Shown here piece after piece: positions 9,237 through 28,289 of a DNA stretch of 64,000 bases. A program made the translations under genes and the position numbers. The notes beneath the pieces were generated by a model. The model was not told the DNA's origin and did no database searches. It saw nothing but the letters and a program-made list of their open reading frames with translations. Within the stretch, counting starts at the first letter, position 1; each line of letters opens with the position of its first letter. The DNA is from Candidatus Fermentibacterota bacterium (GTDB lineage Bacteria; JAFGKV01), in contig JAFGKV010000114.1 of the NCBI GenBank assembly GCA_016928395.1, forward strand, positions 16,525 to 80,524. The letters run 5' to 3'.

Positions 9237-9237
9237 C

Positions 9238-11818: not shown

Positions 11819-13000
11819 ATGAGGATGGCGATGCGCATACACAAGCCGCTCGAACTCTGCCGGGTTGACCGTGCGTTGATTTTGGCCGCCCTGCCCATGC
11901 TGTTCTATGCGGTGGGCACGGCAGTAGTGGCCCGTGACCTCCAATCCCACCTGCCGTCCGGTCCTTCCCGGCTGGTCTTCTCGTCGGCCGTCGACTGGGC
12001 ATTGGGCGTGGTAGCCGGATATGCTGTTCTCATCGCACTCGGTGTTGTGCTGCGTCACCGATCGCCATCGAGCGGTGTCTTCGTGTACATGACCCTGGTC
12101 TACTTCGCCATCAATAACGCGATTCTGGCCACGTTCATCGGGCCACTCTCCAGCCCGCCCTGGCTCTCCATCCTGGGGCTGGCAGTACTAGGCCTTCTCC
12201 TCCTGGGTTCCCGGGAAGTCTTCACCAGTATCAGCATCTACCTGGTGGCATTGGGCCTCATCCATGCGCTGGGGACGACCGGCAGGCTTCCTTACCGGTA
12301 CATCTTCGAGGAAGGCGCGGCGCCTTCGTGGTGGATGTGGCGGATGGCAGTGGTCACCATTGCCAATACCGTGATCATCGTTCTGGTTACCGCCTATGTC
12401 GTTGCGGCATGGCAGCGGCGGGAATCCAGTTTCCGCGATCTTTCCAACCAGGATGATCTCACCGGCGTGGGGAATCGCCGCTTTCTCAGCCATGCTCTGC
12501 GCACTGAATTCTCCCGCGCCCGCCGCTATGGCCGGGAGATGACCTACGCCATTGTCGATCTTGACCACTTCAAGCGTGTGAATGACCGGCACGGCCATCC
12601 CATTGGAGACTTCGTTCTCAGGGCAACGGCAAAGGCTTTGACCGCCTCCACGCGGGAAAGCGACACGGTCGCCCGCTGGGGAGGCGATGAGTTTGTGCTG
12701 CTCTTGCCCGAAACAGGCGTGTCAGGTGCACAGGAACTGGCCGAACGGTGCAGAGCCGCCATTCGCGCGACCGTGGCCGCCGAGACGGGGATAGGGATCA
12801 CCAGCAGCGTCGGCATCGCCTCAATGCGCCACGAGGGTCTTCACTCCCCGGATGATCTGGCTCGGATCGCGGACACAGCCCTGTACGCGGCCAAGCAGGC
12901 CGGTCGGAATCGCGTGGTGATCGCCGCCGAGCCGGCGAAAGACGGCGTCGTCACCTTTCCTCGAATCGTCTCTCAGAATCCGCGCCCCAACGCTATGTGA
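11819..13000 (+). CDS. Membrane-anchored diguanylate cyclase (GGDEF domain)
   Basis: Six or so N-terminal TM helices, then a GGDEF domain: GVGNRRFLSHAL...YAIVDLDHFKRVNDRHGHPIGDFVL...RWGGDEFVLLLPE (intact GGDEF motif). Start placed at an internal Met cluster (MRMAMRI); the ORF begins at 11678. Confidence 0.75.
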   Translation: MRMAMRIHKPLELCRVDRALILAALPMLFYAVGTAVVARDLQSHLPSGPSRLVFSSAVDWALGVVAGYAVLIALGVVLRHRSPSSGVFVYMTLVYFAINNAILATFIGPLSSPPWLSILGLAVLGLLLLGSREVFTSISIYLVALGLIHALGTTGRLPYRYIFEEGAAPSWWMWRMAVVTIANTVIIVLVTAYVVAAWQRRESSFRDLSNQDDLTGVGNRRFLSHALRTEFSRARRYGREMTYAIVDLDHFKRVNDRHGHPIGDFVLRATAKALTASTRESDTVARWGGDEFVLLLPETGVSGAQELAERCRAAIRATVAAETGIGITSSVGIASMRHEGLHSPDDLARIADTALYAAKQAGRNRVVIAAEPAKDGVVTFPRIVSQNPRPNAM

Positions 13001-14589
13001 ACGCGACCCTGGAGCGGATCACTCCCGCGGGGCACGCCGTAGGCTAGTTCGATCATGCCCACTGTGGTGCGAGCCATGATACCCATCCCGACCCCCAGCA
13101 GTCCTTCATGGCGCTCACCCACTTGATACACGCCACAGTCGACAAACGCGAAAAGTGATGATGCACCGCGCGATACGCGATGCAACTCCATCACGATCCA
13201 CCCGGCGCTCTCTGTACGGAATTGGGCTTCACGGTAGCCGCGCACGGTCCGTGCGCCACCCACCGAGAAGCGCTCGGGAAGCGGAAGCTCCTGACCTCCG
13301 TGTACGGCATGCCGCGCAGCACCACGAAGGACTGCCAGGATCCCCGACCCGAGCCCCAGCGATCGCCGGACGTCGACCTCGACACGTACGACAGGCGTCA
13401 CGATCTCTGAGGCAATCTCACGCAGTTCCTGGTACCCGACCCTCAGACTCACCCAGGATCCCGTGGGAGGGACATCGTCGCCATGCTCCCTGTTCCAGAT
13501 TCCCTTTCCCCACGCCTCATCCGCCCTGGTTGAGGCAAGAGGGGCCCCTTCGCCCGGAATCACCCGCCGGCCACGATACCCGATGTAGCCCCTGAAGCTG
13601 CCTCCGAGGTCCCAACCAAGGGCGACCGTTCCATCCCGCTCCACCCAGAGGGTGTCTTCCACCACCTGATTGATGCCGATCTCCAGCGACGGCGGCAACC
13701 CAAGAATCCACGGCTCACGGTACGTCAGCGCCAAGTCGGTTCGCCCAGCGCCACGGGCTTCCCATCGGAACGATGCTTCCCGGGCCGTGCCCGCGATGTT
13801 GCGAAATGCGGCCTGCACACTGCCCACCACCGCGCCGTCCCTTGCAAGACCCACCGCGCCCCGGGCTGTATGGGTAACCCGCTCCACCAGGGGAAACCGC
13901 ACCACAACTCCACCAGGGTCGATGCCGCGCAGAAGTACGGGTTCACCAACCGAGGAGTAGTACCCGGTTTCTCGCAGTCGAGCCACCGCACGATCCATGC
14001 CGCTCTGACGGTACGGCATGCCTGGCCTGATTCCCGCCAGTTTCGACACTACGGAAGCTCTCGTTCTCACAGAATCCGATACCTCGATGCGCTCGATGAC
14101 ACTCCGCGGGCCTGCAGTCGCGCCGACGCGCAACGTCACCATCCCGGCACTGCTGTCCACATCCACATGTCGAACGCCGAGAGAAACAAATGGAAACCCC
14201 GCCTCCTCATGCGCTCCGAGGAGTGTGCTCAGCCTCGCAGTGACGACGCCTGCCTCCCACGGACTCCCTGCCAGATCCTGCAACCGCAGCACTGCATCAG
14301 CGGCATCCGACGAGGCGCCATCCACCACGATACGAGCCACAGTGTATCGCCGCCCGGGAACAAGGCGAAGCGTACGCACGCCTTCCGCCGCGGTGGTCTC
14401 GAATCGTGCCTCGAAAAAACCGTTCCTGCCCAATTCGACCAGTATATCCTCCTTGACGCAGGATTCCCGCCCACTCTCGGTGGTGTCGGCACATGGGGCA
14501 GCGAATCGGGAGGCGGCCGACTCCGGTAGGATGTCACTCATCTCCCACACGGTGGCCATGAGCCCCATCGCTACGACTGCGCAGATCAT
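12973..14589 (-). CDS. Omp85/BamA-TamA family outer-membrane protein
   Basis: Signal-like N-terminus MICAVVAMGLMATVW. Long soluble POTRA-like region followed by a beta-rich C-terminus ending ...VHIALGRGF (terminal Phe typical of OM barrels). The start ATG shares one nt with the upstream stop (TGATG at 14587-14591). Confidence 0.6.
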   Translation of the reverse strand: MICAVVAMGLMATVWEMSDILPESAASRFAAPCADTTESGRESCVKEDILVELGRNGFFEARFETTAAEGVRTLRLVPGRRYTVARIVVDGASSDAADAVLRLQDLAGSPWEAGVVTARLSTLLGAHEEAGFPFVSLGVRHVDVDSSAGMVTLRVGATAGPRSVIERIEVSDSVRTRASVVSKLAGIRPGMPYRQSGMDRAVARLRETGYYSSVGEPVLLRGIDPGGVVVRFPLVERVTHTARGAVGLARDGAVVGSVQAAFRNIAGTAREASFRWEARGAGRTDLALTYREPWILGLPPSLEIGINQVVEDTLWVERDGTVALGWDLGGSFRGYIGYRGRRVIPGEGAPLASTRADEAWGKGIWNREHGDDVPPTGSWVSLRVGYQELREIASEIVTPVVRVEVDVRRSLGLGSGILAVLRGAARHAVHGGQELPLPERFSVGGARTVRGYREAQFRTESAGWIVMELHRVSRGASSLFAFVDCGVYQVGERHEGLLGVGMGIMARTTVGMIELAYGVPRGSDPLQGRVHIALGRGF

Positions 14590-17500
14590 CAGAAGTACGC
14601 TACCAATTCCATCGAACCTTCTCGCACTTTGCCCCTGCCCGCCTCTGATCCGACGCTCAGGCTCATGGTCAAGGTCAACTTCTCCTGTATCTTGTGTTCG
14701 CCCCCAACCTTGATGAGACGGGAGAAACCCTCTTGATCCACGCGGCGCAGCAATGGAGCCAACGCAGACCACGGCCCATCGGCCCGGCGCCATGCAAGCT
14801 CACCATCGATGCGGAACCGTCCTCTCCCGGGCAACGCCAGCCGAAGCCCGGGTGTGACCACGGCCGCATGGAGCACGGCCTCGGTCGCTTCTCTGCTCTC
14901 GCCCGCCACTTCTCGGACAACGTCTTCCCGGGAGAGCTCGCCGCTTCCCACCACATCCAACCGGCCTGTTAGGGGCAGAGAAACAGCCGGCGAGAATCCC
15001 CAGGTCTTCGACCTCGCCACCACCGTGCTTCCTCCTGAGAGCGCGGGACTCTCCCGTTCCTCGGATGAGGCGCGATACACGGCCATGTCGGTGGAAATCA
15101 TCTTCCATCTCGCTCCCCTCGCCCGCACGGCGCATCGCGTCTGATGACGCCTGGTGCGCTGGTCTACCCGCCGGTTATCCGCATCGGCAGCGTAGGCGAA
15201 CTGGGTTGCGATGGCGAACTCGCCGCCCGCGGGCCGAACCTGCATGCTGCCGTCTATTCGACTCACGCGCCGTAGTGTCGTGGAATCGCACTTCACTACT
15301 GCAGGGCGCAACAGGTAGAGATCCGTTCTCCTGTCTGACCGGCTGGTGACCTGGATACGACCGGTCACGTCAGCATTGATGCGCCGTCGCCACTCCGGGC
15401 CACGGCCCCCTGGTGCCAGGCGGAGCCCAACGATCCCCTCCACCAAATCTGTCCTCTCGGCGCCCCCGGAGGGCACCAAGACCTTTTTGTGAGTACCCAG
15501 TTCTGTGCCCACCCACGTTCCCAACGAATCATACTCGCCCACATTGGTCTCCCACGATTCCTCCGGGACCAGTTCTTCGACGAGCTGTTCCGATTGTCGG
15601 CCCGAGATCTTGTAGTCCAGCTCCAGCCTGGGCCCCCAGGACACCGGCAGTGCGGATACCCGTGCGGTGCCCAGAGAGGACACAATGTCCTCGGGCAGAA
15701 CCTTGCCTTGATCCGCCAAGAGCATCCGGTAGGCAGTGGCATAGCGGAGCCGGGTGTGGTTGAAGTCAACCCTGGCCGTCGCCTTGACACCCGCGTTCCC
15801 CGCCACGCCTATCTCCCACCACCGTCCTGACGAGCTGCGCATCCATGCGTCGGGATCCGTGATATGCTCTTTGGTGATTCGGCTGCCGGTTACCACCCTT
15901 GCCGTTGTAGCGGAGCGGCCGATTCGTGCGCCCGCGCCGATATCCATGTACCCCCGGCCCGAGAGCCCGCTGTTCGCCTCTCCCTTCCACATCACGAGAG
16001 GACTCCAGAAACCGAAAGGACGATCCAGCGCGCCGTCGGTCCACCACCGCGTGTCGTCTTTGGCCACTGATCGATTGAAGCGCCCAGTCATTGAATAACC
16101 GCCCGGACCCAGAATCGTCCCGGTCACTTGAGCCCGGCGGGATACTGTCGTCCCCCGGCGCATTCCACCGAGCACGAGGCCGAGGCGACCGTCCCGGGGC
16201 AGCCCGAAGGATAGATCCAGCGTGGCTTCGTCCTCGGAGCCAGTGTCGTCGATACCGCTCCAATCCCGTGTCCATTCCACCGGCCTGGCGCGGCCGGGCG
16301 TCGCGAATCCCGCTCCCTGAGACCGCCACGTTGCGCCCCCCTGCCACCACGGAAAGACTCCTCCCCCACCATGCGCCGACAGATGGGCGTACACTGCGCC
16401 CTGGGTATTGTCCCGGTCATCCCGTGAGGATAAGGTATTAGCATCCCGTACCCCCGCCGCTGCCTCTACATCCAGACGCATGCTGTCCTCTCCCACGCGA
16501 ATACCGACAACCGCGCTTTCGTGCGACCGGGGTGCCTGTACGGTTCGCCAGGCCACGTAGTCCCCGTGCCCGGGCCCGACATATGCCCAAAAGGCGGCGT
16601 CAACGCGCACATAGTCGCCTCCTGCATCACGGTAGAACGTCGCCTCAAAGGCCCCGGCGCCCCCCCCGAGCGAGCTGATCCGCCCCATGTCCACGGGAGT
16701 GTGCGGCGCCCGCGGGATCTCCCCCCCCCGCACTAAGATCACATCCTCACGGCGGTCGTATGCGCCTGCGCCCGTGCTTTCGGCTCGGGCTGCGAAAGGC
16801 CCGCCGCCCGGACCGTAGTACTCGAAACGCGAGCCGACCCGGCGATAGGAGCCCGAGGCCCCGACCGAATCGAACACTGCGTCCCATCCTCCCCCATCGT
16901 GGGGCACGAGAAAGCCAACGTGCAGGGTGTCATACGTGCCCGCGTTCAATCCGACAAACCGGTAGGTGGGCGCCCTGGCCCGTTCGGGATCGTCGCCCGC
17001 GGCCCCCAGCACCGCCCGCTCCTCCTCACCCAGAATCCAGTCCATGGGCTGGGATGCATCGTCTGCTTCACGAAACGCTGCGAATCGTATGGTTATTGCG
17101 TCGGAGATGCTGCGGACTGCCGTTGCCAGGTACACGGTGCGACGGTAGCTCTCCGCGGTGTACTGGAAGTCGACGCTGATGCGCGACAGTCCGGTAATTG
17201 GGCGGCGCTCGGTAAACGTCACCTCGCCAGTCGAATAGTCGATGGTGTAGTCCTTGTCACTGCCTCGGGCCACGGGCGATCCGTCGACCCAGACCCGTTC
17301 CGTTCCCGCCAGGATGACGACGGTACTGGCCCCGCCAGAGAGATGGCGCGCCAGGTAGTAGGGACCTTGGGCGCCGTCGATGCCGGTGAATTCGACACTC
17401 ACGAAGGTCCCCCCGGTGGAAGCCGCAGCCACGTCTCCGGACCACTGCCCGTGGGCCAGCGTACCGGCAACGCCCTGCATCTTTCTCTCAAGGCTCAAGA

Positions 17501-18194
17501 ACCTGAACCCTTCTGTGGCGATGGCGCAATCGCCCACGCTAAGACTGCTCTCCTTCCGCTTCAGCTCGATGACCACACGGTCAATGTCACGCAGCTCCTG
17601 GGTCGTGCCCTGAGGCTGGATGGGCGTACTCTGGTCACTCAGTGAGGCGGTGACCTCCACGTCGCCCGCCAGCCTCCCCTGAAGCTGTACCTGTAATGCC
17701 TGGTCAAGGCTGGGATCTTTGCCTGAGCCGAACCGTACGCCGATGGTCTTGGTGCCGGCGACCTGGAGGGAATGCTCGGACGAGAGATCGGCGGGGTATT
17801 CCGTGGCGGGAGCGGCCGCCGTCACTGCCACAATCTCTTCACCCGGCGAAGGCAAAGCGCGGCGCTGGAGGTGAACCGGTATGCCCAACGGCAGAAAACG
17901 ATACTGGATGCGTACCGTGCTTTCGGCCATGCTGGGGAGGAAGTGAATGCGATTGCGGAAGTCAAGACGAAACCCAGCGCCGGCGGAGAGAAGAGAGTCG
18001 GCCGCCCACACCACGACGGATTCGCCCACGACAAAGGAATCCGGCAGCGCCACCTCCCGAGGCACCGGTGGTCCTAATGCGATAACCCTCTGGATCCCTG
18101 GCGCCGCCTGGGCATTGAGCCCGAGGAAAAGCAGAAGGATGCAACAACGGATAGCCCAGCCCCTGCCTGACGGCGCCCGTTCTTCCCTGTCCAC
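14589..18194 (-). CDS. Giant (~1200 aa) exported W/G/R-rich beta-type protein of unknown family; C-terminal ...ELVAYF
   Basis: ORF 14589..18641. A probable GTG start near 18194 gives signal peptide (M)DREERAPSGRGWAIRCCILLLFLGLNAQA|AP. No motif recognisable to me. Terminal aromatic residue and abundant alternating aromatic/Gly segments suggest an OM beta-barrel or beta-rich exported protein. Confidence 0.5.
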   Translation of the reverse strand: MDREERAPSGRGWAIRCCILLLFLGLNAQAAPGIQRVIALGPPVPREVALPDSFVVGESVVVWAADSLLSAGAGFRLDFRNRIHFLPSMAESTVRIQYRFLPLGIPVHLQRRALPSPGEEIVAVTAAAPATEYPADLSSEHSLQVAGTKTIGVRFGSGKDPSLDQALQVQLQGRLAGDVEVTASLSDQSTPIQPQGTTQELRDIDRVVIELKRKESSLSVGDCAIATEGFRFLSLERKMQGVAGTLAHGQWSGDVAAASTGGTFVSVEFTGIDGAQGPYYLARHLSGGASTVVILAGTERVWVDGSPVARGSDKDYTIDYSTGEVTFTERRPITGLSRISVDFQYTAESYRRTVYLATAVRSISDAITIRFAAFREADDASQPMDWILGEEERAVLGAAGDDPERARAPTYRFVGLNAGTYDTLHVGFLVPHDGGGWDAVFDSVGASGSYRRVGSRFEYYGPGGGPFAARAESTGAGAYDRREDVILVRGGEIPRAPHTPVDMGRISSLGGGAGAFEATFYRDAGGDYVRVDAAFWAYVGPGHGDYVAWRTVQAPRSHESAVVGIRVGEDSMRLDVEAAAGVRDANTLSSRDDRDNTQGAVYAHLSAHGGGGVFPWWQGGATWRSQGAGFATPGRARPVEWTRDWSGIDDTGSEDEATLDLSFGLPRDGRLGLVLGGMRRGTTVSRRAQVTGTILGPGGYSMTGRFNRSVAKDDTRWWTDGALDRPFGFWSPLVMWKGEANSGLSGRGYMDIGAGARIGRSATTARVVTGSRITKEHITDPDAWMRSSSGRWWEIGVAGNAGVKATARVDFNHTRLRYATAYRMLLADQGKVLPEDIVSSLGTARVSALPVSWGPRLELDYKISGRQSEQLVEELVPEESWETNVGEYDSLGTWVGTELGTHKKVLVPSGGAERTDLVEGIVGLRLAPGGRGPEWRRRINADVTGRIQVTSRSDRRTDLYLLRPAVVKCDSTTLRRVSRIDGSMQVRPAGGEFAIATQFAYAADADNRRVDQRTRRHQTRCAVRARGARWKMISTDMAVYRASSEERESPALSGGSTVVARSKTWGFSPAVSLPLTGRLDVVGSGELSREDVVREVAGESREATEAVLHAAVVTPGLRLALPGRGRFRIDGELAWRRADGPWSALAPLLRRVDQEGFSRLIKVGGEHKIQEKLTLTMSLSVGSEAGRGKVREGSMELVAYF

Positions 18195-18240
18195 CGCGCC
18201 TAAACCGTTCCGTCCACGGAACCGCGGGCGCGCCGTCGCG

Positions 18241-19095
18241 CTACGGCACCTCGGCCAGGGCAAGCCCCACGATCGTGTCGCTCTCACGTTCCGCGACAAG
18301 AAGCATGCCATCCGTGGCGAAACACACGGCGGACGGGCTGGCGAGTTGCGGCATGCCGGCAGGCGGGCATGACAGATCGTAGACGACACCGTTCTTGAAC
18401 ACCCTGACGACATGTGCCTCCTCGTCAACCATCGCGCCGAGCCCGTCTTTGCGAATGTCCACGCTCCCCGGCGATCCCCCCACCGCGATGGCTCCCCGAT
18501 GGTTGCCGTGTGTGTCAAAGAAGTGCACAAGGCCTCCAGCCTGATCAGACACCGCCACACGTCCAGCCGCACATGCGAGGCCGGCCGGTATGAGCGGGAT
18601 TCGCGGTTCGTCTCCTGCCCCGCTGAGTCGGCGCAAGCCATCGAAGGGGTCTGTTACCATGATCGTTCCTGAGCCCTCGTCGGCGACAAACACCCGCCCG
18701 TCGGGCAGCGAGGCCACTGCCAGGGGTTTCCAAGGCCACACTCCGCCACCGGGGCCACGGATCTCCGTCACGGGCACACCGGCTCTGTCGACCTTCAGCA
18801 TGCGTGAACCGTCGGTATCAGCCAGATAGACGAACTGCCCCCCCGGATCCGTGACTGCCACGCGGTCTGAGAACTCCATCCATCCCTGCCCATTCCCACC
18901 GAAGGAGCGGACATGCCTGCCGTCCATAGAAAAGAAGTGAAAACGGGCCACTCCACGGTCTCCCACCCAGAAACCACCATGGGGACTCCGCGCCAACGCC
19001 TCCGGGCCATGCAGGATGCCCGGCCCAACCACCACGGATGACGACATCACCGACACGGTCTCCATAGCGGCGGCCGTCAGCAGCGCAAGTATCAT
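18241..19095 (-). CDS. NHL-repeat beta-propeller protein (exported)
   Basis: Signal MILALLTAAAMETVSV. Repeated blades: GQFVYLADTDGSRMLKVDRAG, DGRVFVADEGSGTIMVTDPFDG, AGRVAVSDQAGGLVHFFDTHGNHRGAI, DGMLLVAERESDTIVGL. ATGA overlap with the tonB stop. Confidence 0.5.
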   Translation of the reverse strand: MILALLTAAAMETVSVMSSSVVVGPGILHGPEALARSPHGGFWVGDRGVARFHFFSMDGRHVRSFGGNGQGWMEFSDRVAVTDPGGQFVYLADTDGSRMLKVDRAGVPVTEIRGPGGGVWPWKPLAVASLPDGRVFVADEGSGTIMVTDPFDGLRRLSGAGDEPRIPLIPAGLACAAGRVAVSDQAGGLVHFFDTHGNHRGAIAVGGSPGSVDIRKDGLGAMVDEEAHVVRVFKNGVVYDLSCPPAGMPQLASPSAVCFATDGMLLVAERESDTIVGLALAEVP

Positions 19096-19784
19096 CGGAG
19101 AACAAACTCCACGGTCACGTCGCCGGTGGCGTCGGCGGATCCCGTCACCGATTCGAAACGCCATTGTCGAAGAGCCTCTATGGCGGCGTCATCCAGGGCG
19201 GGGTGAGCTTTGAGTACCAGAGTCGCGACCCTGACGTTCCCGTCCGGCGTGACCACCAGACGAACCTTGACAATCCCCCCGCTGGGCGCGCCCGGGGGAA
19301 AGACCGGGTCGACCATGTAGATCGGCGTTCGGGTCGAGAGCGTCCCTTCCACTCTGACTTTGACTCCCGATCCCACCGCCGGCGAGGACGTGGTCACCGG
19401 CATCGGAGCCAGTCGTGCGCCCGGAGAGGGGCCGGGAGGGGCAGGATCGGACGGGGAGAGCAAAGGGCTGGGGGGACGGTCCGAAAGAGCAGAGGAGGCC
19501 GGCAAGTCGGGAAGAAGTGCTTCGTTCCGCTCGGAAGCCGGCAGCGGCGCGATGTCACCGGTGCGTGCCCGCGGCCCTGTGGACTCCCGGGGCGGTGCCT
19601 GCGGCGCCGGCTGTTCCTCTGCCGAGGAGATCTCTCCAGCCAGCAACTCCACCTCCAGAGGCGGCGCCGCCATGGGCCGCACAGAGACATGAACAAGGAG
19701 GAAAAGCACGGCAAGGAGACCGTGCAACGCCACGGCGGCTCCCACTCCCACATGAGAGGGGGAACACCACGGATCGCGTCTCAC
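19092..19784 (-). CDS. tonB: Energy transducer TonB (N-terminal TM, Pro-rich linker, TonB_C domain)
   Basis: TM LHGLLAVLFLLVHV. Pro-rich PSPLLSPSDPAPPGPSPGARLAPMP. C-terminal PIYMVDPVFPPGAPSGGIVKVRLVVTPDGNVRVATLVLKAHPALDDAAIEALRQWRFES matches the TonB C-terminal fold pattern. Confidence 0.65.
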   Translation of the reverse strand: MRRDPWCSPSHVGVGAAVALHGLLAVLFLLVHVSVRPMAAPPLEVELLAGEISSAEEQPAPQAPPRESTGPRARTGDIAPLPASERNEALLPDLPASSALSDRPPSPLLSPSDPAPPGPSPGARLAPMPVTTSSPAVGSGVKVRVEGTLSTRTPIYMVDPVFPPGAPSGGIVKVRLVVTPDGNVRVATLVLKAHPALDDAAIEALRQWRFESVTGSADATGDVTVEFVLR

Positions 19785-20203
19785 CGGGCATCCTCCGGCT
19801 TCGACGCGATAAGCAACCGCTGGTACCCGGCGCGACGACCTGCATCCAGTACGCTCACCACCCAGTGGAACTGGCTCACCCGATCTGCCCTGATGATGAG
19901 CGAGGGTACTTCCTGCACGGGATCCAACGCGTGACGCAACTCCTCTTCCAGGCGTTCCGCCCCGATCCTCCGGGCGCCGAGAAAAATCTCACCGCGCTCG
20001 GTCACCGTCACCACGACTCGGTTGTGGGGCTCCGGCTCTGCGGTCTGAGTTCGTGGGAGGTCTATCTTGATACCCGGCTGCACCACGAAACTCGATGAGA
20101 GAAGGAAGAAGATCAGGAGCAAAAACACGATATCGGTAAGCGAGACTGCCGGGATGGAGGAGATCCGACGCCGTGACGTCTCAAACAACGACCGGGCCAT
20201 CAT
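19781..20203 (-). CDS. exbD: Biopolymer transport protein ExbD/TolR
   Basis: Internal Met start MMARSLFETSRRR. Single TM DIVFLLLIFFLLSSSFVV. Periplasmic domain ...RVVVTVTERGEIFLGARRIG...SLIIRADRVSQFHWVVSVLDAGRRAGYQRL typical of ExbD/TolR. Confidence 0.7.
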   Translation of the reverse strand: MMARSLFETSRRRISSIPAVSLTDIVFLLLIFFLLSSSFVVQPGIKIDLPRTQTAEPEPHNRVVVTVTERGEIFLGARRIGAERLEEELRHALDPVQEVPSLIIRADRVSQFHWVVSVLDAGRRAGYQRLLIASKPEDAR

Positions 20204-20816
20204 CTTCACCCTGAGTCGGCACCAGGCGCAGCAACTCCACCGCTGCGCGACGCATCTGGTGAGCAAGGCCTTCGATCTCGCCCACCAGCCAGTTGTTGCC
20301 GATGAGCGCGGGTATGCCCACCACCAATCCTCCGGCCGTGGTGACCAAGGCCTCCCAGATTCCTCCAGCGAGGATACTGGCATCAACCTGCCCGGCATGG
20401 GTCTGCACCTGCATGAAGGCCCGGATCATGCCCGTCACCGTGCCTAAGAACCCGACCATGGGCGCGGCGGCCGCCACGATGGCGAGCCAGCCTATGCGCC
20501 GCTCAAGAGTGTCGATCTCCAACTGCCCCGCCATGGCCATGCCGTCCCGCGCGACATCGCGATTGCCGCCGGCCTCCAGCCCCGCCAGTAACACCTTCGC
20601 TACGGGTGCGGTGCTTCGCCTGCACCGGGCCTGTGCTACTTCTTCCTGGCGCTCCTTGACCAGCGCCAGGATTTCCCAAGAGATCCGGTCAGTCCCCTTC
20701 CGGGCGCGCCGCAACACGATGTAGCGCTCGATGAACACCGCCAGGGCCACCAGTGACCCCAGCGCGATGGGCACCATGAAGTAGCCGCCCTTGATCACCA
20801 GCGTGAGAAGATTCAC
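20181..20816 (-). CDS. exbB: MotA/TolQ/ExbB proton-channel protein
   Basis: Probable GTG start (VNLLTLVIKGGYFMVPIALGSLVALAVFIERYI) sharing one G with the upstream TAG stop (ctaGTG). Three TM helices. Conserved C-terminal segment WLAIVAAAAPMVGFLGTVTGMIRAF. Confidence 0.7.
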   Translation of the reverse strand: MNLLTLVIKGGYFMVPIALGSLVALAVFIERYIVLRRARKGTDRISWEILALVKERQEEVAQARCRRSTAPVAKVLLAGLEAGGNRDVARDGMAMAGQLEIDTLERRIGWLAIVAAAAPMVGFLGTVTGMIRAFMQVQTHAGQVDASILAGGIWEALVTTAGGLVVGIPALIGNNWLVGEIEGLAHQMRRAAVELLRLVPTQGEDDGPVVV

Positions 20817-22243
20817 TAGGCTCCCTCCTGCCCGTAGGGCCGTTTGAGGCTCCATCCTAATCCGATCGCCACCATCGTGCGAGGACGCGCGGTGAGGCTG
20901 AACCCCCACCCACTGGATCCTCGAGCTATCGCTTCCCAACCCCCTCCCAGAGGCATCGCCACATCCAGCGTGACACCGCCTGATGCCGGGAGTGAAGCGT
21001 CCCACCCATGCAGTCCTGTTTCTCCTTCCACCGTTGCCCGGAGCCGGGGACGCTGCCCGCGGGCAGCAGACACCCACCACTCCATTTCCGGAATGAGGGG
21101 CCACTGCGCCGAGTACGGCAGAGAGCCAGCCCGGGTGGTGACCTCCAGTCCATCCAACGCCACGCCGCCACTGATCCGCCCTCGCGAGTCATGCCACGAC
21201 ACGGCCAGGCTTACCTTGAAGCCTTCTCCGGCCAGCGATTCCGTTACCCAGAGGTCGTCAACTTCCCGCCAGGCAGGCGCATGGCCAATGTGTCGATCCT
21301 GGAGAGTCCCAACGACGGTCATCCGGGGCGACGCCCGAACAGCCACGGTCGCGTCCACACTCCAATCCGTCACACACGCATGGCCAGAGGTCGTGGGATG
21401 GGCTGCGGGGAAGGCCTCACGCAGCGAGGTCTCATCGAGAAACGAGAGTGTCCGCTCTGCCGAAATCGCCCACGCGGTGCGTCCCAACGAGAGGGGACCG
21501 AGGCGAGTGGATGCCTCCATGATCAGGCGAGTCGTGTCACCATCGTCAACCATCATGGGACCGGCGCTGACCATGATCCGGGGACTCTCGTGGCACCAAC
21601 GCACCATGCCGCCCGCGACATGATCCCCCCCCGTCACCTCGAAGGGAAGATGCACTCCCGGCACATGGCCGGATACCCAGGCCTGACCATGGAAGGTGCT
21701 CTTCTCCCCCTCCCAGCCGCTCCCCGAGACCATGGCCCGGGTATGGTACAGGCCCAACGGGACCTCAGCCCAGAGACGTCCATGGACCCAGCCCGGTGCG
21801 ACCTCGATCTCGTCCAGCCGATCAGCCCAGTGCTGCACCCTTAGTCCCACGGACCCCCACGCGCCCGCCGTCAGAGCGCCGGCGCGCATGCCCCGGCGCT
21901 CCAGACGCCCCGCATCGAAACTCCAGAGCCGGGCCGCCACCCCGCCGCCGGCTTCTCCGAGACCGGCCGTAATCACTCCCGCGTACACGGGACCGGCGGC
22001 CGCGGACAGGCTGAATCCTACCGGGGGAGGCCGGTGAAGCGGCCGGACCGGGGCCTCCCGGTGCGAATCGCCCATCTCCGGCCTCGGCAACTGAATCGGG
22101 GGGATTGCCCGAGGAAGCAGCGGGGCAGACCAGAACTCCCTCTGGGGAAGATCAAGCTGTGGGGAGCCCTTCACCACCAGATGGGGCAGGTCTAGCTCGC
22201 CGGCCGCCATGACGAAGATCAGGCCGGCGACAAGGCTGCTCAC
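20816..22243 (-). CDS. Hypothetical exported W-rich protein, probable outer-membrane beta-barrel (475 aa)
   Basis: GTG start overlapping the upstream TPR stop (GTGA). Signal MSSLVAGLIFVMAAG. Many Trp/Gly. No family recognised. Confidence 0.4.
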   Translation of the reverse strand: MSSLVAGLIFVMAAGELDLPHLVVKGSPQLDLPQREFWSAPLLPRAIPPIQLPRPEMGDSHREAPVRPLHRPPPVGFSLSAAAGPVYAGVITAGLGEAGGGVAARLWSFDAGRLERRGMRAGALTAGAWGSVGLRVQHWADRLDEIEVAPGWVHGRLWAEVPLGLYHTRAMVSGSGWEGEKSTFHGQAWVSGHVPGVHLPFEVTGGDHVAGGMVRWCHESPRIMVSAGPMMVDDGDTTRLIMEASTRLGPLSLGRTAWAISAERTLSFLDETSLREAFPAAHPTTSGHACVTDWSVDATVAVRASPRMTVVGTLQDRHIGHAPAWREVDDLWVTESLAGEGFKVSLAVSWHDSRGRISGGVALDGLEVTTRAGSLPYSAQWPLIPEMEWWVSAARGQRPRLRATVEGETGLHGWDASLPASGGVTLDVAMPLGGGWEAIARGSSGWGFSLTARPRTMVAIGLGWSLKRPYGQEGA

Positions 22244-25086
22244 GGGCCGGCTCCAACGCCTTCGCCCGCCAATCGCCGCGCAGCCTCATTGGCTGGAGCC
22301 GCCAACGAATCCTGAGGGGAGAGGTAGGCCAGCCGGAGATAGAGCCTGCGTGCTTCACTGATGCTGCCCAAGGCTTCCTGAACCCGCGCGGCAATCCAGT
22401 AGACCCGTGGGGAGGGCCCGGTCGAGCGTTCAAGAAGCGGCGAAAGCCATGCCCAAGCGCTGTCGGCGCGGTCGGCGGCCAAATGCGTCTCCGCCCCGGC
22501 CAGGACTGCCTTGTCGCGCCACTCCACGCCGCCGGTGCTGGCCAGTGTCGCCCAGACGGCAATGGCCGAATCGGAGGAATCTTCAAGGGCGAAGCCCAGT
22601 TCATACCGTGCGGCGTCTCCCAGCTCGCTGCCTGGATAGAGGGCCAACATCTCTCGCAATAGCCTCGCCGCGGTAGCGGAATCCCGGGGGCGGGAGAGCC
22701 GCGCAGCCTCGTAGAGCCCCTCTGCGGCTTCGCGGGCATCGGGCCAAAGGCGAGCCAAGGACTCAAATGCCTCCTGCGCCTCGTCCACCCGCCCGGAACG
22801 GGCAAGACTCCACGCGGCACGCAGATCTGCCCAAGGCGTGCCAAGACTTCGATACAAGGGCAATGCATCCTCGTATCGATTGAGCCCGAAAAGAAGGTCT
22901 GCCTTTGCCTGGATCAGCCCGCTCCTCCTGCTCTCGTCCTGCGCCCGATTCAGCAGGGTATCACAGAGGATGATGGCCTGCCCGGCATCCGACGACTGCA
23001 ATTCCGCCCACAACGCTCCCTGGACGGCATGGGCCCACAGGTCAGAGTCAGGATAGCCTTGAACCAAGGAGAGATACGTGGTACGGGCAGTAGCATACTC
23101 ACCACGGTTATACTGACAATCTCCGATCCGATAGAGGGCATTGTCCCGCACTGTACGATCCCGTTGAAGGGCGACTACCCGTCGGTATTCGACCTCCGCC
23201 TCGTCGAATCTGCCGGCGCGGAAGAGGGCCTCAGCCTTCTCGAACAGCGCATTGTCGGCAATGTCTTCGGTGGGCGATGCATGGAATAGCCTGTCCAGCG
23301 TGGCAATAGCCTCATCAGTCTCACCGGCCAGCGACAGGGCCCGCCCCAGCCCCAACAAGGCTTCATCACCAATCTCGCGGCGGGCAACAATCTGGGTCGC
23401 CGCCCGGTACGATGCTGCGGCCTCGCGGTAGAGTTCCTGGGCCATGAGCACGTCCCCCGCGCGAAGAGTTGCCCTGGCAGCAGTCTCTGATCGCGGGTCG
23501 GCCGCCGCGGCTTCCCTGAAGCCCGCCAAAGCGTCGTCGTTCTTCCCCATGGAAAGAGAGGCCCATGCCCTGCCGAAGGCTGCGTCAGCCCGCTCCCGAG
23601 CCGTCGGCATGCCCGGAAGCGCCTCCCGATAGGCGGCCTCCGCCTCGGACCACCTCCCCTGACGGGCAATGGCCTCAGCTTTCCAGAATGCAATCCTGGC
23701 CGCAAGGCTGTCGTTCACCGACCCGCTGAAGGCACCGGCCAGACGCTCCACCCGATCCCATGACTCGGCACGATAAGCGGCAACCAGGGCCCGATATCCT
23801 AGATCGTGCGCCAGGTCTCCTTGCGCACGATCACGGGCATCGAGGAAGTACTCAGATGCATCGCTCCACCGGCCCTCGGCCGCCGAGATCTCAGCATAGA
23901 GAGCAAACGCCTCCACGCTGTCTCCGCGGCTGTGCAGGCGGGCCAAACCCCGGTCAAGGGTCTGCCTCGCCTCCCCCAGCCGGTTAAGATCGCGCTGGAG
24001 GCTCGCCCGAAGGAGAATGGCCCTGGCCAGCAGCGTCCGGTCGCTGATCCCGGCAGTTTCCACCGCCAGGAGCGAATCACCCGCCCCGGGCCGATCTGTC
24101 CTCTGAAGTGCGCTGGCCAGCAGGACTGCTGCCTCGCCCCGCTCGCTGCCCTCAAGCGTGCGCATGGCGCCTGAAAGCAACGCCGACGCCTCTTTGGGCC
24201 GGTCTTCCTCCATGTACATCCACCCCAGCAGCCTCACCGATTCAAGCCCGCGCTCGGCGAGAACCGCGATGGCCTCATCGTGCCGGCCCTGATCCCAGAT
24301 GCTGCGCGCCTTGAGTTCCCGCACCACTCGCGAATCCGCTCGTTCTGGCCAGCGCCGCGCCAGTGTCTGGAGGGTTACCTCGGTATCCGCGGGACGCTCC
24401 GTCTCCACCAATAGCCTCGCCAGGGACACTATGTCATCAGGCCGTGCATCGGGGCTGGCTACCAGCCTCGTCAAGACGTCTCTGGCCTGCTCGTCGCGCC
24501 CCATGCGCTGCAGGGCCTCGGCCTGGCGTCGCAGTGCCCATCCGTGGAGATCACCGGCGGGAAGCTTCTGGGTTGCCTGGCTCAGGAGTTCCGCGGCGCG
24601 GGGAAACGCATCTCGCCTGAATGCCGCCTCGCCGGCCCAGTAGATAGCCTCACCTGCTCCATGAGAGGCCTCGGCGGCAGCCCGAAGATACAGGCTCTCG
24701 GCTTGAACGAACGAGCCCAGCTCGAACAGCGTCGCAGCGAGACGGAGGAGGGCTTCACCTGTCCATGGTGAGACCGGATGCGTGGCAATAAAGGATTCCA
24801 GACGTGTGCGAGCGCGTACCCATTCACCCAGTTGCACCCAGCAGTCTGCCGCCAGAAAGGCGGCTTCCTCGGCATCGGGATGTGATCGACGCTGAGCGAC
24901 GAAGCGTTCGAGTTCATCAGCAGCCAGACGGTACTCGCCCTGGGAGTAAAGGTGCCGGGCGAAGTCAAGATCGAGCCGGGCACCGGCATCGGGTTGCGCG
25001 CGTAGTGGTGACACCGATGGCATGAGGACCACGAGGAGCCCGACAGCCCCGATGACCGCACCGCGGGGATGAAAACGCCGCATCAT
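22240..25086 (-). CDS. Large periplasmic tetratricopeptide-repeat protein (~949 aa)
   Basis: Signal MMRRFHPRGAVIGAVGLLVVLMPSVSPLRAQ. More than 20 TPR-like helix pairs across the length (AEALQRMGRDEQARDVLTRL; YRIGDCQYNRGEYATARTTYLSLV, etc.). ATGA overlap with the upstream lipoprotein stop. Confidence 0.65.
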   Translation of the reverse strand: MMRRFHPRGAVIGAVGLLVVLMPSVSPLRAQPDAGARLDLDFARHLYSQGEYRLAADELERFVAQRRSHPDAEEAAFLAADCWVQLGEWVRARTRLESFIATHPVSPWTGEALLRLAATLFELGSFVQAESLYLRAAAEASHGAGEAIYWAGEAAFRRDAFPRAAELLSQATQKLPAGDLHGWALRRQAEALQRMGRDEQARDVLTRLVASPDARPDDIVSLARLLVETERPADTEVTLQTLARRWPERADSRVVRELKARSIWDQGRHDEAIAVLAERGLESVRLLGWMYMEEDRPKEASALLSGAMRTLEGSERGEAAVLLASALQRTDRPGAGDSLLAVETAGISDRTLLARAILLRASLQRDLNRLGEARQTLDRGLARLHSRGDSVEAFALYAEISAAEGRWSDASEYFLDARDRAQGDLAHDLGYRALVAAYRAESWDRVERLAGAFSGSVNDSLAARIAFWKAEAIARQGRWSEAEAAYREALPGMPTARERADAAFGRAWASLSMGKNDDALAGFREAAAADPRSETAARATLRAGDVLMAQELYREAAASYRAATQIVARREIGDEALLGLGRALSLAGETDEAIATLDRLFHASPTEDIADNALFEKAEALFRAGRFDEAEVEYRRVVALQRDRTVRDNALYRIGDCQYNRGEYATARTTYLSLVQGYPDSDLWAHAVQGALWAELQSSDAGQAIILCDTLLNRAQDESRRSGLIQAKADLLFGLNRYEDALPLYRSLGTPWADLRAAWSLARSGRVDEAQEAFESLARLWPDAREAAEGLYEAARLSRPRDSATAARLLREMLALYPGSELGDAARYELGFALEDSSDSAIAVWATLASTGGVEWRDKAVLAGAETHLAADRADSAWAWLSPLLERSTGPSPRVYWIAARVQEALGSISEARRLYLRLAYLSPQDSLAAPANEAARRLAGEGVGAGP

Positions 25087-25688
25087 TCGCTCGTGACAAA
25101 GAAGAGGGCCAGCAACGTGCCTACCACGCCGGCGACCACCATGGGCGCCACCACACCTGGCGACGTAGGCACTGCTGCCGAAGGTGTGAAAACAGGATCG
25201 GACAACCCTGCCAATTCGACGGCCGGTGTCCACTCCTGCCGGCGGTCCACGGCCCTGGTGCTGGCAATCACGTCGCCGCCCGGCCCGAGCAGCCGCGCCA
25301 CCAGACTACACGACCCATCGCGCAGAACCCAGGGTTTCATCATGATCCCCCGTCGGTCAACTTTCCGATGGCGAACCCCCAACTCCACGATGCGCACGTG
25401 GAGTGTGTGGGTCGTGGAGTCACGTCCACTCTCCCGCAGCGCAAATCCGCGACCCAGCAGCTCGCCCTCCAGCAATGAACGCACAAGCCATGCGCCTTCG
25501 CCCCCGCCCGTCATCTCAAGACTGAGGCCTTCTTGTGGGTACGCCTTACATAGTGCGGTCACGCTGTCCACCGCGACGGCAGCCGCCCTGCTCACCATCT
25601 CGAGATCGGTAGGCTGCGGACGAAGCTGGGCAGAACCGGATGCGCAGGCCAGGAACCCCAACCCGACCAAGGCGAGGTAGCGCCTCAC
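25083..25688 (-). CDS. Hypothetical exported/lipoprotein-like protein with C-terminal TM
   Basis: GTG start overlapping the upstream stop (GTGA). Signal MRRYLALVGLGFLACASG. C-terminal hydrophobic VVAPMVVAGVVGTLLALFFV. Confidence 0.4.
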   Translation of the reverse strand: MRRYLALVGLGFLACASGSAQLRPQPTDLEMVSRAAAVAVDSVTALCKAYPQEGLSLEMTGGGEGAWLVRSLLEGELLGRGFALRESGRDSTTHTLHVRIVELGVRHRKVDRRGIMMKPWVLRDGSCSLVARLLGPGGDVIASTRAVDRRQEWTPAVELAGLSDPVFTPSAAVPTSPGVVAPMVVAGVVGTLLALFFVTSE

Positions 25689-26203
25689 GGCTCCTGCTCC
25701 AGATCATACAAGTCGGTAATACGGAAGCGATCGTCGGCGCACCTCGTAATCACAAACTCCGCCCAGAAGTAGCCGACGCCTTTCTCGAAAAGCTGGTCGG
25801 CGGTCTCCCAGACGAGTAGATCGCACTCTCGGTACAAACGCCACGTCTCCGGATCGTCGCTGATTCTGGTCGCATAGTCTCCCACCATGGTCAGCTCGAT
25901 GTGATCCATGGTGCTGAACATCTTGCGGTGCATCCGCTCCTCCTCCACCTTGCCCCAGGAAGGCGCCGGCCAGATGTCGTTCACGTCGCGGGGGACCAGA
26001 TGGAACTCAAAGGTGTCCACGAGGCATTCCAAGTAGCGGTCGATATCTTTGCGTTGATAGGCGTTGGCCAGTTGCACGACGACGCCTGCAGGGGTTGCCA
26101 GCAAATCCTGGGGGTCACCATCATCCTTGTCCGGGTCAAAGATGCAACCGGCAAGGCATAGGGCCGCCACCGGCAGGATCACGCCCACTTTCCATCTGGT
26201 CAT
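25685..26203 (-). CDS. Hypothetical lipoprotein
   Basis: Signal plus consensus lipobox ILPVAALCLAGCIFD (L-A-G-C). ATGA overlap with the ClpX-like stop. Confidence 0.4.
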   Translation of the reverse strand: MTRWKVGVILPVAALCLAGCIFDPDKDDGDPQDLLATPAGVVVQLANAYQRKDIDRYLECLVDTFEFHLVPRDVNDIWPAPSWGKVEEERMHRKMFSTMDHIELTMVGDYATRISDDPETWRLYRECDLLVWETADQLFEKGVGYFWAEFVITRCADDRFRITDLYDLEQEP

Positions 26204-27798
26204 GGCTCCTCCTTATCCTCTGAGTTACCCGCGGACTTCGACCGGTTTGAACCCGTAGGCAGCGGGGGTTCACGGTGGGCATACGTGGTCTTGATCATCG
26301 CATCAAGGTAGGCACGGGGATCTTTGCATGCCGCGAGGCCAAGTCGCAGGCTCCTCTTACCCGCCAACTGCAGGCCGTACTCCAAGTCCGCGAACCGCTC
26401 CTGGCAGAATGCCTTGACATCCTGACCATCCTGCGTTGCGCGGTCAATGATCCAGCGACGAGCCGGGGGAGTAATATCGATTCGGATCCCGGTGCGTTCC
26501 CGAAACTGGCTCGCAAAGACCTCAAGCAGCCCTTTCACCAGCACCTGCCGAAGATCTCCCTCGGGATCAAGAACTGTGTCCTTCGTCACCACGACCCGGG
26601 GAATTCCGGAACCGGGGATTCCATGCTCGAAGGGCAGTAGGCATCGCTCCAGAATCGACTTCAGGCCCCGAGCGCCAGTCCCCTCGGCGGACGCACGATG
26701 GGCGATCTCCCGGTATGCATCATCGGCAAACTCCAGGGTTACCCCATAGGATGCGAAGTCCCGTATCTTGCCTTGCGTGAGTGGGCTCAGCGGAGTCCTG
26801 AGGATCTCCAGGAGCTTATCTTCATCCAACGGGTGGAACACCACGACGATGGGAAGCCTGCCGATGAACTCCGGTTCAAACCCGTACGCGATAAGGTCTT
26901 CAGAGCGAACCTGGGAGAGAATCCAAAACGGATTCTCAAACTTCGCCTCTTCAGTAGACTCGAAGCCGATGACCCGTTTGCGCAGGCGACGGCGTATGAT
27001 ATCGTCCAGCCCGACAAACGCACCGCTCATGATGAAGAGTATGTTGCGGGTGTTAATCTTCTTCCGGTGTACGCGGCCCGTGCGCTGGGCCTCCATCATC
27101 GCCTCCATCTGACTGGCCAGATCGAATGGCGCCCGCAGATCGACTTCCGTCTCCTCCATGAGCTTCAGCAGGTTCCGCTGCACACCCGTACGGGACACAT
27201 CCGGTCCCTGTGTGACACCACTGGCCGCGATTTTGTCGATTTCGTCAAGATAGATGATCCCATGCTCCGCCAGAGAAACCATACCGTTGGCCTGGTGGGC
27301 CAGATCCCGGACCAACTGCTCGACATCGCCACCCACGTACCCGGTCTCGCTGAACTTGGTGGCGTCACCCTTGACGAACGGCACCCCCAGTTCTTCGGCA
27401 ATCAGCCTGACGATGTAGGTCTTGCCCACACCCGTCGGGCCGATCATGAGCATATTCGCCTTCACCTCCCCCACGAGACGCCGCTCAGCAGAGGCCGATT
27501 CCCAGGCTACCCTGTGAAAATGCGTACAGACCTTCGTTGCCATGGCCCTGGTAGCCTCGCCCTGCCCGATGACGAACTGCCGGAGACTGCCTTCCAGGCC
27601 GGCAGGCAACACGTCGAACCGAATCCTCTGGGGTTCATCCTCCGGCTCCTCCGCCTTCGGTGGCGCCGGACGCGCCGCAGGCATCATGACCTTCACACCG
27701 TACTGGTCACCGATAAAGCCCTGCAGCTTCTCCTGGAGTTTCTCCAGGACACGCTCGAAGCCCTCGGCACCCTCTTCCCTTGTCGTCTCGTCACTCAT
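26200..27798 (-). CDS. ClpX/HslU-family AAA+ ATPase (ClpX-like unfoldase without Zn-finger N-domain, extended termini)
   Basis: Walker A MLMIGPTGVGKTYIV. ClpX-like GDATKFSETGYVGGDVEQLV. Walker B GIIYLDEIDKIA. Sensor VQRNLLKLMEET. No CxxC zinc-binding N-domain. About 110 aa N- and 150 aa C-terminal extensions. Start chosen at MSDETTREE after GGAAGGA. Confidence 0.65.
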   Translation of the reverse strand: MSDETTREEGAEGFERVLEKLQEKLQGFIGDQYGVKVMMPAARPAPPKAEEPEDEPQRIRFDVLPAGLEGSLRQFVIGQGEATRAMATKVCTHFHRVAWESASAERRLVGEVKANMLMIGPTGVGKTYIVRLIAEELGVPFVKGDATKFSETGYVGGDVEQLVRDLAHQANGMVSLAEHGIIYLDEIDKIAASGVTQGPDVSRTGVQRNLLKLMEETEVDLRAPFDLASQMEAMMEAQRTGRVHRKKINTRNILFIMSGAFVGLDDIIRRRLRKRVIGFESTEEAKFENPFWILSQVRSEDLIAYGFEPEFIGRLPIVVVFHPLDEDKLLEILRTPLSPLTQGKIRDFASYGVTLEFADDAYREIAHRASAEGTGARGLKSILERCLLPFEHGIPGSGIPRVVVTKDTVLDPEGDLRQVLVKGLLEVFASQFRERTGIRIDITPPARRWIIDRATQDGQDVKAFCQERFADLEYGLQLAGKRSLRLGLAACKDPRAYLDAMIKTTYAHREPPLPTGSNRSKSAGNSEDKEEP

Positions 27799-28289
27799 CT
27801 GCATCCTTCCTATGGCGAGCCCGTGGCATGGGCACAATCGTAGCGGCCGCACTCAGAAGGCATGCGTTCTCCACCCGAGACGCTGCGATGCGTGCCACGC
27901 CCGCCTGTTCCTGCCCAGGCCCACGTTCTCAATCTGCCTACCCATTGTCAGGCCAAGCGGTTCCGTGGCATGCGCCCTGGGAGGGAAGGGCCTTCGGATG
28001 GCAGGTTGCCCGCTTCACTGGCAGTCAGGGTCCGGGGACGCCGTCTCTCCTAGTTTCACTCACGGAATGCGGTATCACCGGGCCCGGCTCCTCTCCCGCG
28101 CCAGCGGCCGCGGCGTGAGGGCCACATCTAACACCAGCAGGTCATTCTCGTCAGCATTACCGGCAGTTGGATTCGCTTCCGGGTGGCTTGACGGAGAGGC
28201 ACCCGTTGCCCTGCTTGCGTGTCACGTACGAACTACCCTTGATGGAGGGTCATGGCACCCTCGTCTGCGGGCATTCACGCCGGGCCTCA

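Follow-up and report, generated by a model that had tools for sequence, protein, structure and literature searches.

The 64-kb window analysed here (the whole stretch of 64,000 nucleotides, positions 16,525 to 80,524 of contig JAFGKV010000114.1 from a Candidatus Fermentibacterota bacterium) carries on its minus strand a gene for a ClpX-like AAA+ ATPase, followed by a string of genes for envelope proteins (Table 1). The maximal open reading frame (ORF) of the ATPase gene (27852 to 26200) begins with GTG and would encode 550 amino acids (aa); initiation at the ATG located at 27798 yields a 532-aa product, which is 100% identical to the NCBI protein P0001, annotated as 'AAA family ATPase [Candidatus Fermentibacteria bacterium]'. 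An earlier note on this DNA had given exactly these coordinates, leaving the strand unstated, and had described the product as a ClpX-family ATPase devoid of the zinc-binding N-domain and bearing terminal additions, a description that is borne out by Pfam, NCBIfam, the sequence motifs and the family alignment.

The assignment to the ClpX family is consistent across searches. Pfam recognizes AAA_2 (residues 131–336 of the 550-aa ORF), AAA and ClpB_D2-small. The top NCBIfam models are those of ClpX, PRK05342 (299.9 bits, profile positions 60–401 of 418) and TIGR00382 (271 bits), and the runner-up is HslU (TIGR00390), with 161.7 bits for a cut-off of 362.45 and a match broken into three stretches; the comparison of the two subfamilies by hidden Markov model (HMM), as suggested in the earlier note, thus places ClpX first and HslU second. 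Likewise, a sequence search of the PDB returned ClpX chains first (E values from 1.5e-68 to 6e-59), then mitochondrial CLPX, then HslU. The ATPase differs from HslU in two further respects: alignments to solved ClpX reveal no I-domain insertion between Walker A and Walker B, and the ATPase has an IGF-type loop, which HslU lacks. No membrane segment was found in the protein. The sole PADLOC match was a P-loop-level one to IetA (residues 111–142, 20 bits), and membership of an anti-phage defence system was rejected on this ground.

The ATPase has every catalytic and translocation element of ClpX. Indeed, the pore-region motif SETGYVGGDVEQ, the Walker A and Walker B motifs and the sensor motifs are found as the earlier note had claimed, the Arg finger is R314, in EFIGRLP, and the combination of Walker A and B, Arg finger and sensor-2 is that of an HCLR-clade AAA+ module. 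Conservation was assessed by counting motifs in the 120 best relatives of the ATPase and by aligning 34 members of the family (alignment A1). Among the 120 relatives, GYVG, Y[LIV]DE[IV]D and GR[LIV]P occur in all, GPTGVGKT in 119 and GARGL in 115.

In ClpX, the IGF tripeptide is the element that docks on ClpP. The earlier note had proposed a check for an IGF/LGF loop, and such a loop is present in the ATPase, where I277-G278-F279 aligns with the IGF of a solved ClpX. A hydrophobic residue followed by Gly-Phe stands at this position in 120 of 120 relatives (IGF in 53, MGF in 44, VGF in 13, LGF in 6, FGF in 3 and YGF in 1), and in alignment A1 G278 and F279 are invariant while the loop residues that flank the tripeptide vary freely. 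Strict conservation amid a variable loop is the signature expected of a constrained docking motif, and it is chiefly from this that we infer a ClpP partner. The earlier note had expected a ClpP-independent oddity and had listed an IGF loop among the findings that would speak against its own reading; the conserved hydrophobic-GF tripeptide argues against that expectation.

By contrast, the three elements of ClpX that deal with substrates and adaptors, namely the zinc-binding domain (ZBD), the RKH loop and the C-terminus, are replaced or supplemented. Where canonical ClpX has its C4 zinc-binding domain (CxxC...CxxC), the ATPase has a Cys-free conserved helix followed directly by a variable linker (residues 34–60), which is modelled with low confidence (alignment A1; predicted local distance difference test, pLDDT, of the AlphaFold 2, AF2, model). 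There is no match to the Pfam family zf-C4_ClpX, the match to the ClpX profile begins at position 60, no Cys occurs in residues 1–62 and no CxxC in the whole protein; the Cys count of the N-region is zero in 119 of the 120 relatives. The N-terminal extension of about 110 aa put forward in the earlier note thus exists as a unique region, but it measures about 62 aa, approximately the length of a ZBD plus linker, and is a replacement.

The RKH loop of Escherichia coli ClpX recognizes the ssrA tag. No RKH motif was found in the ATPase, which has at this position a remodelled loop that, in HMMER alignments to two solved ClpX chains, exceeds its counterpart by 8–11 aa (lengths in this region and at the C-terminus were taken from HMMER and NCBIfam coordinates). 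In the AF2 model the loop contains a helix (residues 227–240). The segment is kept family-wide, with the consensus PHDLASQMEAxMEAQRTGKxxRKK, and ends in a basic R-K-K cluster, so that a longer, helical and basic loop takes the place of the RKH loop of canonical ClpX.

The third difference from canonical ClpX is an extra lid-like domain of about 95 aa. This C-terminal extension (residues 413–507) is conserved across the whole family, and profile–profile comparison matched it (residues 433–494) to the true lid (residues 348–412) with a probability of 97.4% and an E value of 1.2e-11. On the strength of this match we regard it as a second, degenerate lid which, as judged from the profiles, is an internal duplication of the first. 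The sensor-2 motif GARGL is gone from the second copy, whose own motifs are YEYGLKL and PxxYLDxLIK. It is followed in Fermentibacteria-type members only by an acidic tail of 25 residues that is predicted to be disordered. The earlier note was therefore right about the existence of a C-terminal extension but not about its size, the net addition being about 105–120 aa and not 150. The second lid also differs from the lid domains of Lon, ClpA and ClpB: it is a second copy placed behind an AAA+ module that is already complete, it lacks the sensor-2 arginine, and neither a nucleotide-binding nor a protease domain follows it.

Proteins of this architecture form a sizeable family. The relatives retrieved by database search measure 489–557 aa (median 508) and are 49–53% identical to the ATPase over about 92% of the query. 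The metagenome-assembled genomes (MAGs) that encode these relatives of about 50% identity are labelled, where named, candidate division KSB1, Calditrichota, Latescibacteria, Gemmatimonadota, Bacteroidota or simply 'bacterium'; closer relatives are labelled Fermentibacteria and Eisenbacteria. An exhaustive search of 1.84 billion representative proteins with a profile of the second lid gave 491 matches at E ≤ 1e-3 and 235 at E ≤ 1e-10. The full-length proteins among them measure 496–597 aa, with the match at about residues 410–520, and most matches fall into two stretches, of which the second is presumably the true lid. The search also returned P0250 (1067 aa), in which an exported enzyme with CBM9 and heparinase II/III domains is joined to a lid and a second lid with no ATPase core; its interpretation as a Rosetta-stone fusion was rejected, as a chimera arising from gene calling or assembly is the more probable explanation.

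The family members tested are 37–42% identical to E. coli ClpX over about 350 residues, whereas a canonical Chlamydiales ClpX, encoded beside clpP in locus L003, is 56% identical to it. Judging from these identities, the tandem-lid proteins are a coherent clade apart from canonical ClpX. We define their architecture as an N-terminal helix, a ClpX-type AAA+ module with GYVG and a hydrophobic-GF tripeptide, and a second lid, all of which the ATPase possesses. The family has no NCBIfam model of its own, its members being named 'AAA family ATPase' or ClpX depending on the source, and literature searches, including searches for ZBD-less ClpX in Bacteroidetes and the FCB group, found no description of a tandem-lid ClpX-like family. 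We therefore take it to be a distinct ClpX-like subfamily, so far undescribed.

ClpX is the reference model of AAA+ unfoldases, and the substrates it chooses are accounted for by its zinc-binding domain, its RKH loops and adaptors. The ATPase resembles canonical ClpX (E. coli; TIGR00382/PRK05342; PDB 3hws, 6po1, 6vfs, 9ndj) in its Walker A and B motifs, Arg finger, sensor-2, GYVG and the position of the IGF-type loop. On sequence criteria it is thus ClpX-like, yet it lacks three features by which a ClpX is recognized: the ZBD, the RKH loop and a score above the HMM cut-off. The nearest described ZBD-less ClpX is ClpX3 of Myxococcus xanthus (MXAN_2743), a paralogue of 356 aa devoid of both ZBD and RKH motif, which coexists with the canonical ClpX1 and ClpX2 and whose gene, isolated from clpP, is non-essential but needed for growth at elevated temperature (PMC11423568). 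This case shows that ZBD-less ClpX paralogues can coexist with canonical ClpX. ClpX3 was rejected as a characterized member of the family, since it has only 356 aa as compared to 532 here; judged by its length and description, rather than by its sequence, it is a bare AAA+ module, without the conserved N-terminal helix or the second lid.

The genes that follow the ATPase gene on the same strand code for a lipoprotein and a second, probable one, a large TPR protein, a 475-aa protein, ExbB, ExbD, TonB, an NHL-repeat protein, a giant protein and an Omp85/POTRA protein, and the string ends convergent with a GGDEF gene. As the earlier note had observed, the stop codon of the ATPase gene overlaps the first lipoprotein gene; the overlap is ATGA, and a strong Shine-Dalgarno sequence (AAGGAGGAG) precedes the start of lipoprotein 1. 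Further 4-bp overlaps join lipoproteins 1 and 2 (25685–25688), lipoprotein 2 and the TPR protein (ATGA, 25086–25083) and the TPR and 475-aa proteins (GTGA, 22240–22243). Translational coupling is therefore the rule along the gene string and not peculiar to the ATPase junction. The giant protein has no Pfam or NCBIfam family beyond a sub-threshold match to DUF2460, and its pairing with the Omp85/POTRA protein may recall a TamB/TamA-like translocation module.

Table 1. Features of the ClpX-like ATPase and of the gene string that follows it (positions in the window; residues of the 532-aa product)
Feature	Position	Strand	Basis or remarks
ClpX-like AAA+ ATPase gene	26200..27798	minus	532 aa, M1 = MSDETT; start as in homologues and NCBI annotation
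N-terminal conserved helix, residues 10–33, consensus LQxxxxEFLxxKYG	27700..27771	minus	Alignment A1; AF2 secondary structure and pLDDT
AAA+ large (alpha/beta) subdomain, residues 63–317	26848..27612	minus	Pfam, NCBIfam, alignments to solved ClpX, alignment A1, motif counts
Walker A, G120-PTGVGKT127	27418-27441	minus	
Pore-1 loop, G153-Y-V-G156	27331-27342	minus	Inside SETGYVGGDVEQ
Walker B, D185-E186	27241-27246	minus	
Remodelled loop in place of the ClpX RKH loop, residues 220–250	27049..27141	minus	HMMER alignments, alignment A1, model
IGF-type tripeptide, I277-G278-F279	26962..26970	minus	Matches the IGF of ClpX 6vfs (N. meningitidis) in the alignment
Canonical AAA+ small (lid) subdomain, residues 318–412, sensor-2 G375-A-R377	26563..26847	minus	Pfam ClpB_D2-small, alignments, model
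Second, degenerate lid domain (from profile comparison), residues 413–507	26278..26562	minus	
Low-complexity acidic C-terminal tail, residues 508–532	26203..26277	minus	Alignment A1, model
ATGA overlap, ATPase stop (TGA) / lipoprotein 1 start (ATG)	26200..26203	minus	AAGGAGGAG just upstream
Lipoprotein 1, 172 aa	25685..26203	minus	Signal peptide and LAGC lipobox; no family match
Probable lipoprotein 2, 201 aa	25083..25688	minus	No family match
Large exported TPR protein, ~948 aa from the ATG at 25086	22240..25086	minus	Maximal ORF to 25233
475-aa protein	20816..22243	minus	Family unassigned by Pfam/NCBIfam
ExbB (~20181-20810), ExbD (~19781-20200), TonB (19092-19784)	19092..20810	minus	Starts approximate
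NHL-repeat protein	18241 to ~19100	minus	First gene of the block 12973..19164; starts in the block are maximal-ORF values
Giant protein, up to 1350 aa	14589-18641	minus	No family match; maximal-ORF start
Omp85/POTRA protein, 606 aa, divergent in sequence	12973-14793	minus	Maximal-ORF start

Upstream of the ATPase gene lie about 370 bp of non-coding DNA and then a divergent gene of unassigned family (28167–29378, plus strand). No Rfam family was found in this upstream region, nor any sequence conserved among the four Fermentibacteria loci described below, and scans for sigma-70 promoters and terminators gave nothing above background. The rest of the window, whose G+C content is about 60–65%, contains genes of an ordinary chromosomal kind, namely mutL, two tRNA genes and genes for a GGDEF protein, an aminotransferase, glycosyltransferases, an M14 peptidase and a PEP-utilising enzyme with PtsI-type domains. 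The M14 carboxypeptidase (1302 aa, 46940–50848, plus strand) carries MAM-like and FlgD-Ig domains, and another M14 peptidase is encoded close to the ATPase gene in L010 (1–1540); both are probably proteases secreted by a fermentative organism that uses peptides.

The earlier note had asked whether the ATPase gene co-occurs with the ExbB-D/TonB/Omp85 block in other genomes. We compared 14 distinct loci of the family, four of which are of the Fermentibacteria type (the window, L001, L005/L006 and L010) and ten from elsewhere. The three other Fermentibacteria-type loci, with ATPases 69% (L001), 64% (L005/L006) and 73% (L010) identical to that of the window, have the same gene order and the same 4-bp overlap between the ATPase and lipoprotein genes; L010 comes from an assembly of the study describing Ca. 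Sabulitectum silens. In Fermentibacteria, the ATPase gene is thus likely co-transcribed with the lipoprotein, TPR, ExbB-ExbD-TonB and Omp85 genes. The claim that it heads this operon is correct for the window but not always so: in L005 (356–2152) and L006 (186–1982), a gene for a B12-binding radical-SAM protein of 598 aa overlaps the start of the ATPase gene by 4 bp. In L001, a radical-SAM gene (8450–9454) lies upstream of the ATPase gene on the same strand, where the window has the divergent gene instead. Since the same kind of coupling joins the ATPase gene to an unrelated radical-SAM gene, tight packing here does not imply a shared function.

The ten other loci (L002, L004, L007, L008, L009 and L011–L015; ATPases about 50% identical) present a different picture. 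None of them contains ExbB, ExbD, TonB or Omp85, and tblastn detected no homologue of any operon protein within 8–10 kb (to the contig end in L002 and L013). The neighbours differ from locus to locus and are housekeeping-like: in L007 and L015 (L012 and L002 being similar) the ATPase gene is followed by mgsA/rarA, with ROK, GH57 and LptD genes upstream on the opposite strand; in L004 and L008 it is divergent from kdsC-lptC-lptA-lptB-rpoN; in L009 it is near rimP-nusA-infB; and in L014 it lies between nadC and uvrC. This is the ordinary context in relatives that the earlier note had named as a second finding that would count against its reading. Note that lipopolysaccharide-transport genes recur near the ATPase gene outside Fermentibacteria, in loci that may stem from only two or three lineages. 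As to the operon proteins, only 12 homologues of lipoprotein 1 were found, all with at least 54% identity, and the 475-aa protein gave two database hits, one of which is the protein itself. From its own side, the envelope block could therefore not be followed beyond Fermentibacteria. Since lipoprotein 1 and the 475-aa protein were detected only in close relatives and no operon protein has a homologue in the ten other loci, the ATPase family is far older and wider than the operon link, which is a Fermentibacteria-specific arrangement and not a property of the family.

The interpretation that best accounts for these data, to which we give a probability of about 0.6, is that the ATPase is a cytoplasmic, hexameric ClpX-type AAA+ unfoldase of a distinct subfamily, composed of an N-terminal helix, the AAA+ large domain, the lid and a degenerate second lid, which probably docks on ClpP and chooses its substrates by means of its new parts. 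In this scheme, the IGF-type loops would dock the ATPase on ClpP, and unfolded substrates would be fed into the peptidase, giving an alternative ClpXP-like protease in which the N-terminal helix, the basic loop in its remodelled form and the extra lid, and not ZBD-dependent adaptors, may select the substrates. Several observations weigh against it. The ATPase scores under both ClpX equivalog cut-offs (299.9 bits for a cut-off of 359 with PRK05342, and 271 for 370.75 with TIGR00382). The evidence for docking, which we infer from sequence, is a single tripeptide. No clpP gene lies beside the ATPase gene in the 14 distinct loci, nor was one found by tblastn anywhere in the 64-kb window, which bears out the earlier note as regards the absence of an adjacent clpP. 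Finally, in Fermentibacteria the gene order and the 4-bp overlap persist although the neighbours have diverged to 26–59% identity (26–39% for the 475-aa protein), which leaves room for a real functional link within this lineage.

Alternatively, the ATPase could be the only, housekeeping ClpX of the organism, an orthologue with a replaced N-domain that works with ClpP on the usual substrates. The conserved IGF-type loop and motor motifs, together with an N-terminal region about as long as a ZBD plus linker, are compatible with this possibility; moreover, no second clpX was found in the window or in any locus, and the gene is a single conserved copy in housekeeping-type contexts (mgsA, nusA-infB, lptCAB-rpoN). 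However, the absence of clpP next to the gene in all 14 loci departs from the common clpP-clpX arrangement, as seen in L003, the RKH loop has given way to another loop, canonical ClpXs of different phyla share much higher identity with one another than the ATPase shares with them, and among 1.84 billion representative clusters no more than 491 have the signature domain. We therefore hold a housekeeping role to be unlikely, although it has a real chance of being correct. Since clpP is not linked, canonical ClpX is distant in sequence and M. xanthus offers a precedent, we favour the view that the ATPase is a paralogue, as suggested by sequence comparison and by analogy.

It is also conceivable that the ATPase acts alone as a ClpP-independent chaperone or remodeller, the GF tripeptide being kept for a structural reason. 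ClpX does have ClpP-independent activities, no clpP linkage exists in any locus, and the extra lid and the N-terminal helix could be client-binding modules. This possibility nevertheless seems improbable to us, as an invariant GF after a hydrophobic residue in a variable surface loop would be hard to explain without a docking partner.

The last possibility is that the ATPase is the dedicated cytoplasmic partner of the downstream envelope machine (the lipoproteins, the TPR protein, ExbB-ExbD-TonB, the NHL protein, the giant protein and Omp85), whose components or cargo it would unfold, deliver or quality-control. The ATGA overlap with lipoprotein 1 and its strong Shine-Dalgarno sequence, and the persistence of gene order and overlap in L001, L005/L006 and L010 despite neighbour identities of 26–59%, are in keeping with such a partnership, as is the tonB/exbBD system reported to be active in a Fermentibacteria population (bioRxiv 10.1101/146886). 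This is the least probable of the readings considered here: the ATPase family extends far beyond the operon, the ten other-lineage loci have no operon homologues, lipoprotein 1 and the 475-aa protein are found only in close relatives, the downstream products are all exported or membrane proteins whereas the ATPase has no membrane segment, no obvious physical route leads to them from a soluble cytoplasmic hexamer, and an unrelated radical-SAM gene is coupled likewise in L005/L006. The proposal that the ATPase serves the ExbBD/TonB/Omp85 machine is thus an argument from synteny, confined to Fermentibacteria-type loci. We know of no described case in which a soluble AAA+ unfoldase is coupled to an outer-membrane machine of the TonB type, and consider it very doubtful that in Fermentibacteria the ATPase has been recruited as a fixed, coupled part of an ExbBD/TonB-TPR-Omp85 apparatus, controlling its assembly, turnover or cargo.

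Nothing in these results overturns the current understanding of ClpX, and the trait that was noted first, the envelope operon, is specific to one lineage; the link would matter only if shown to be functional in Fermentibacteria. The interest of the tandem-lid family, which is spread over several mostly uncultured phyla and whose labels, 'AAA family ATPase' and plain 'ClpX', both hide the difference, lies elsewhere. With the motor and the docking loop kept, every known specificity element swapped and a second lid added, it constitutes a natural experiment in the re-targeting of a ClpXP-type machine, and the question that it puts to ClpX specialists is what the second lid and the N-terminal helix bind.

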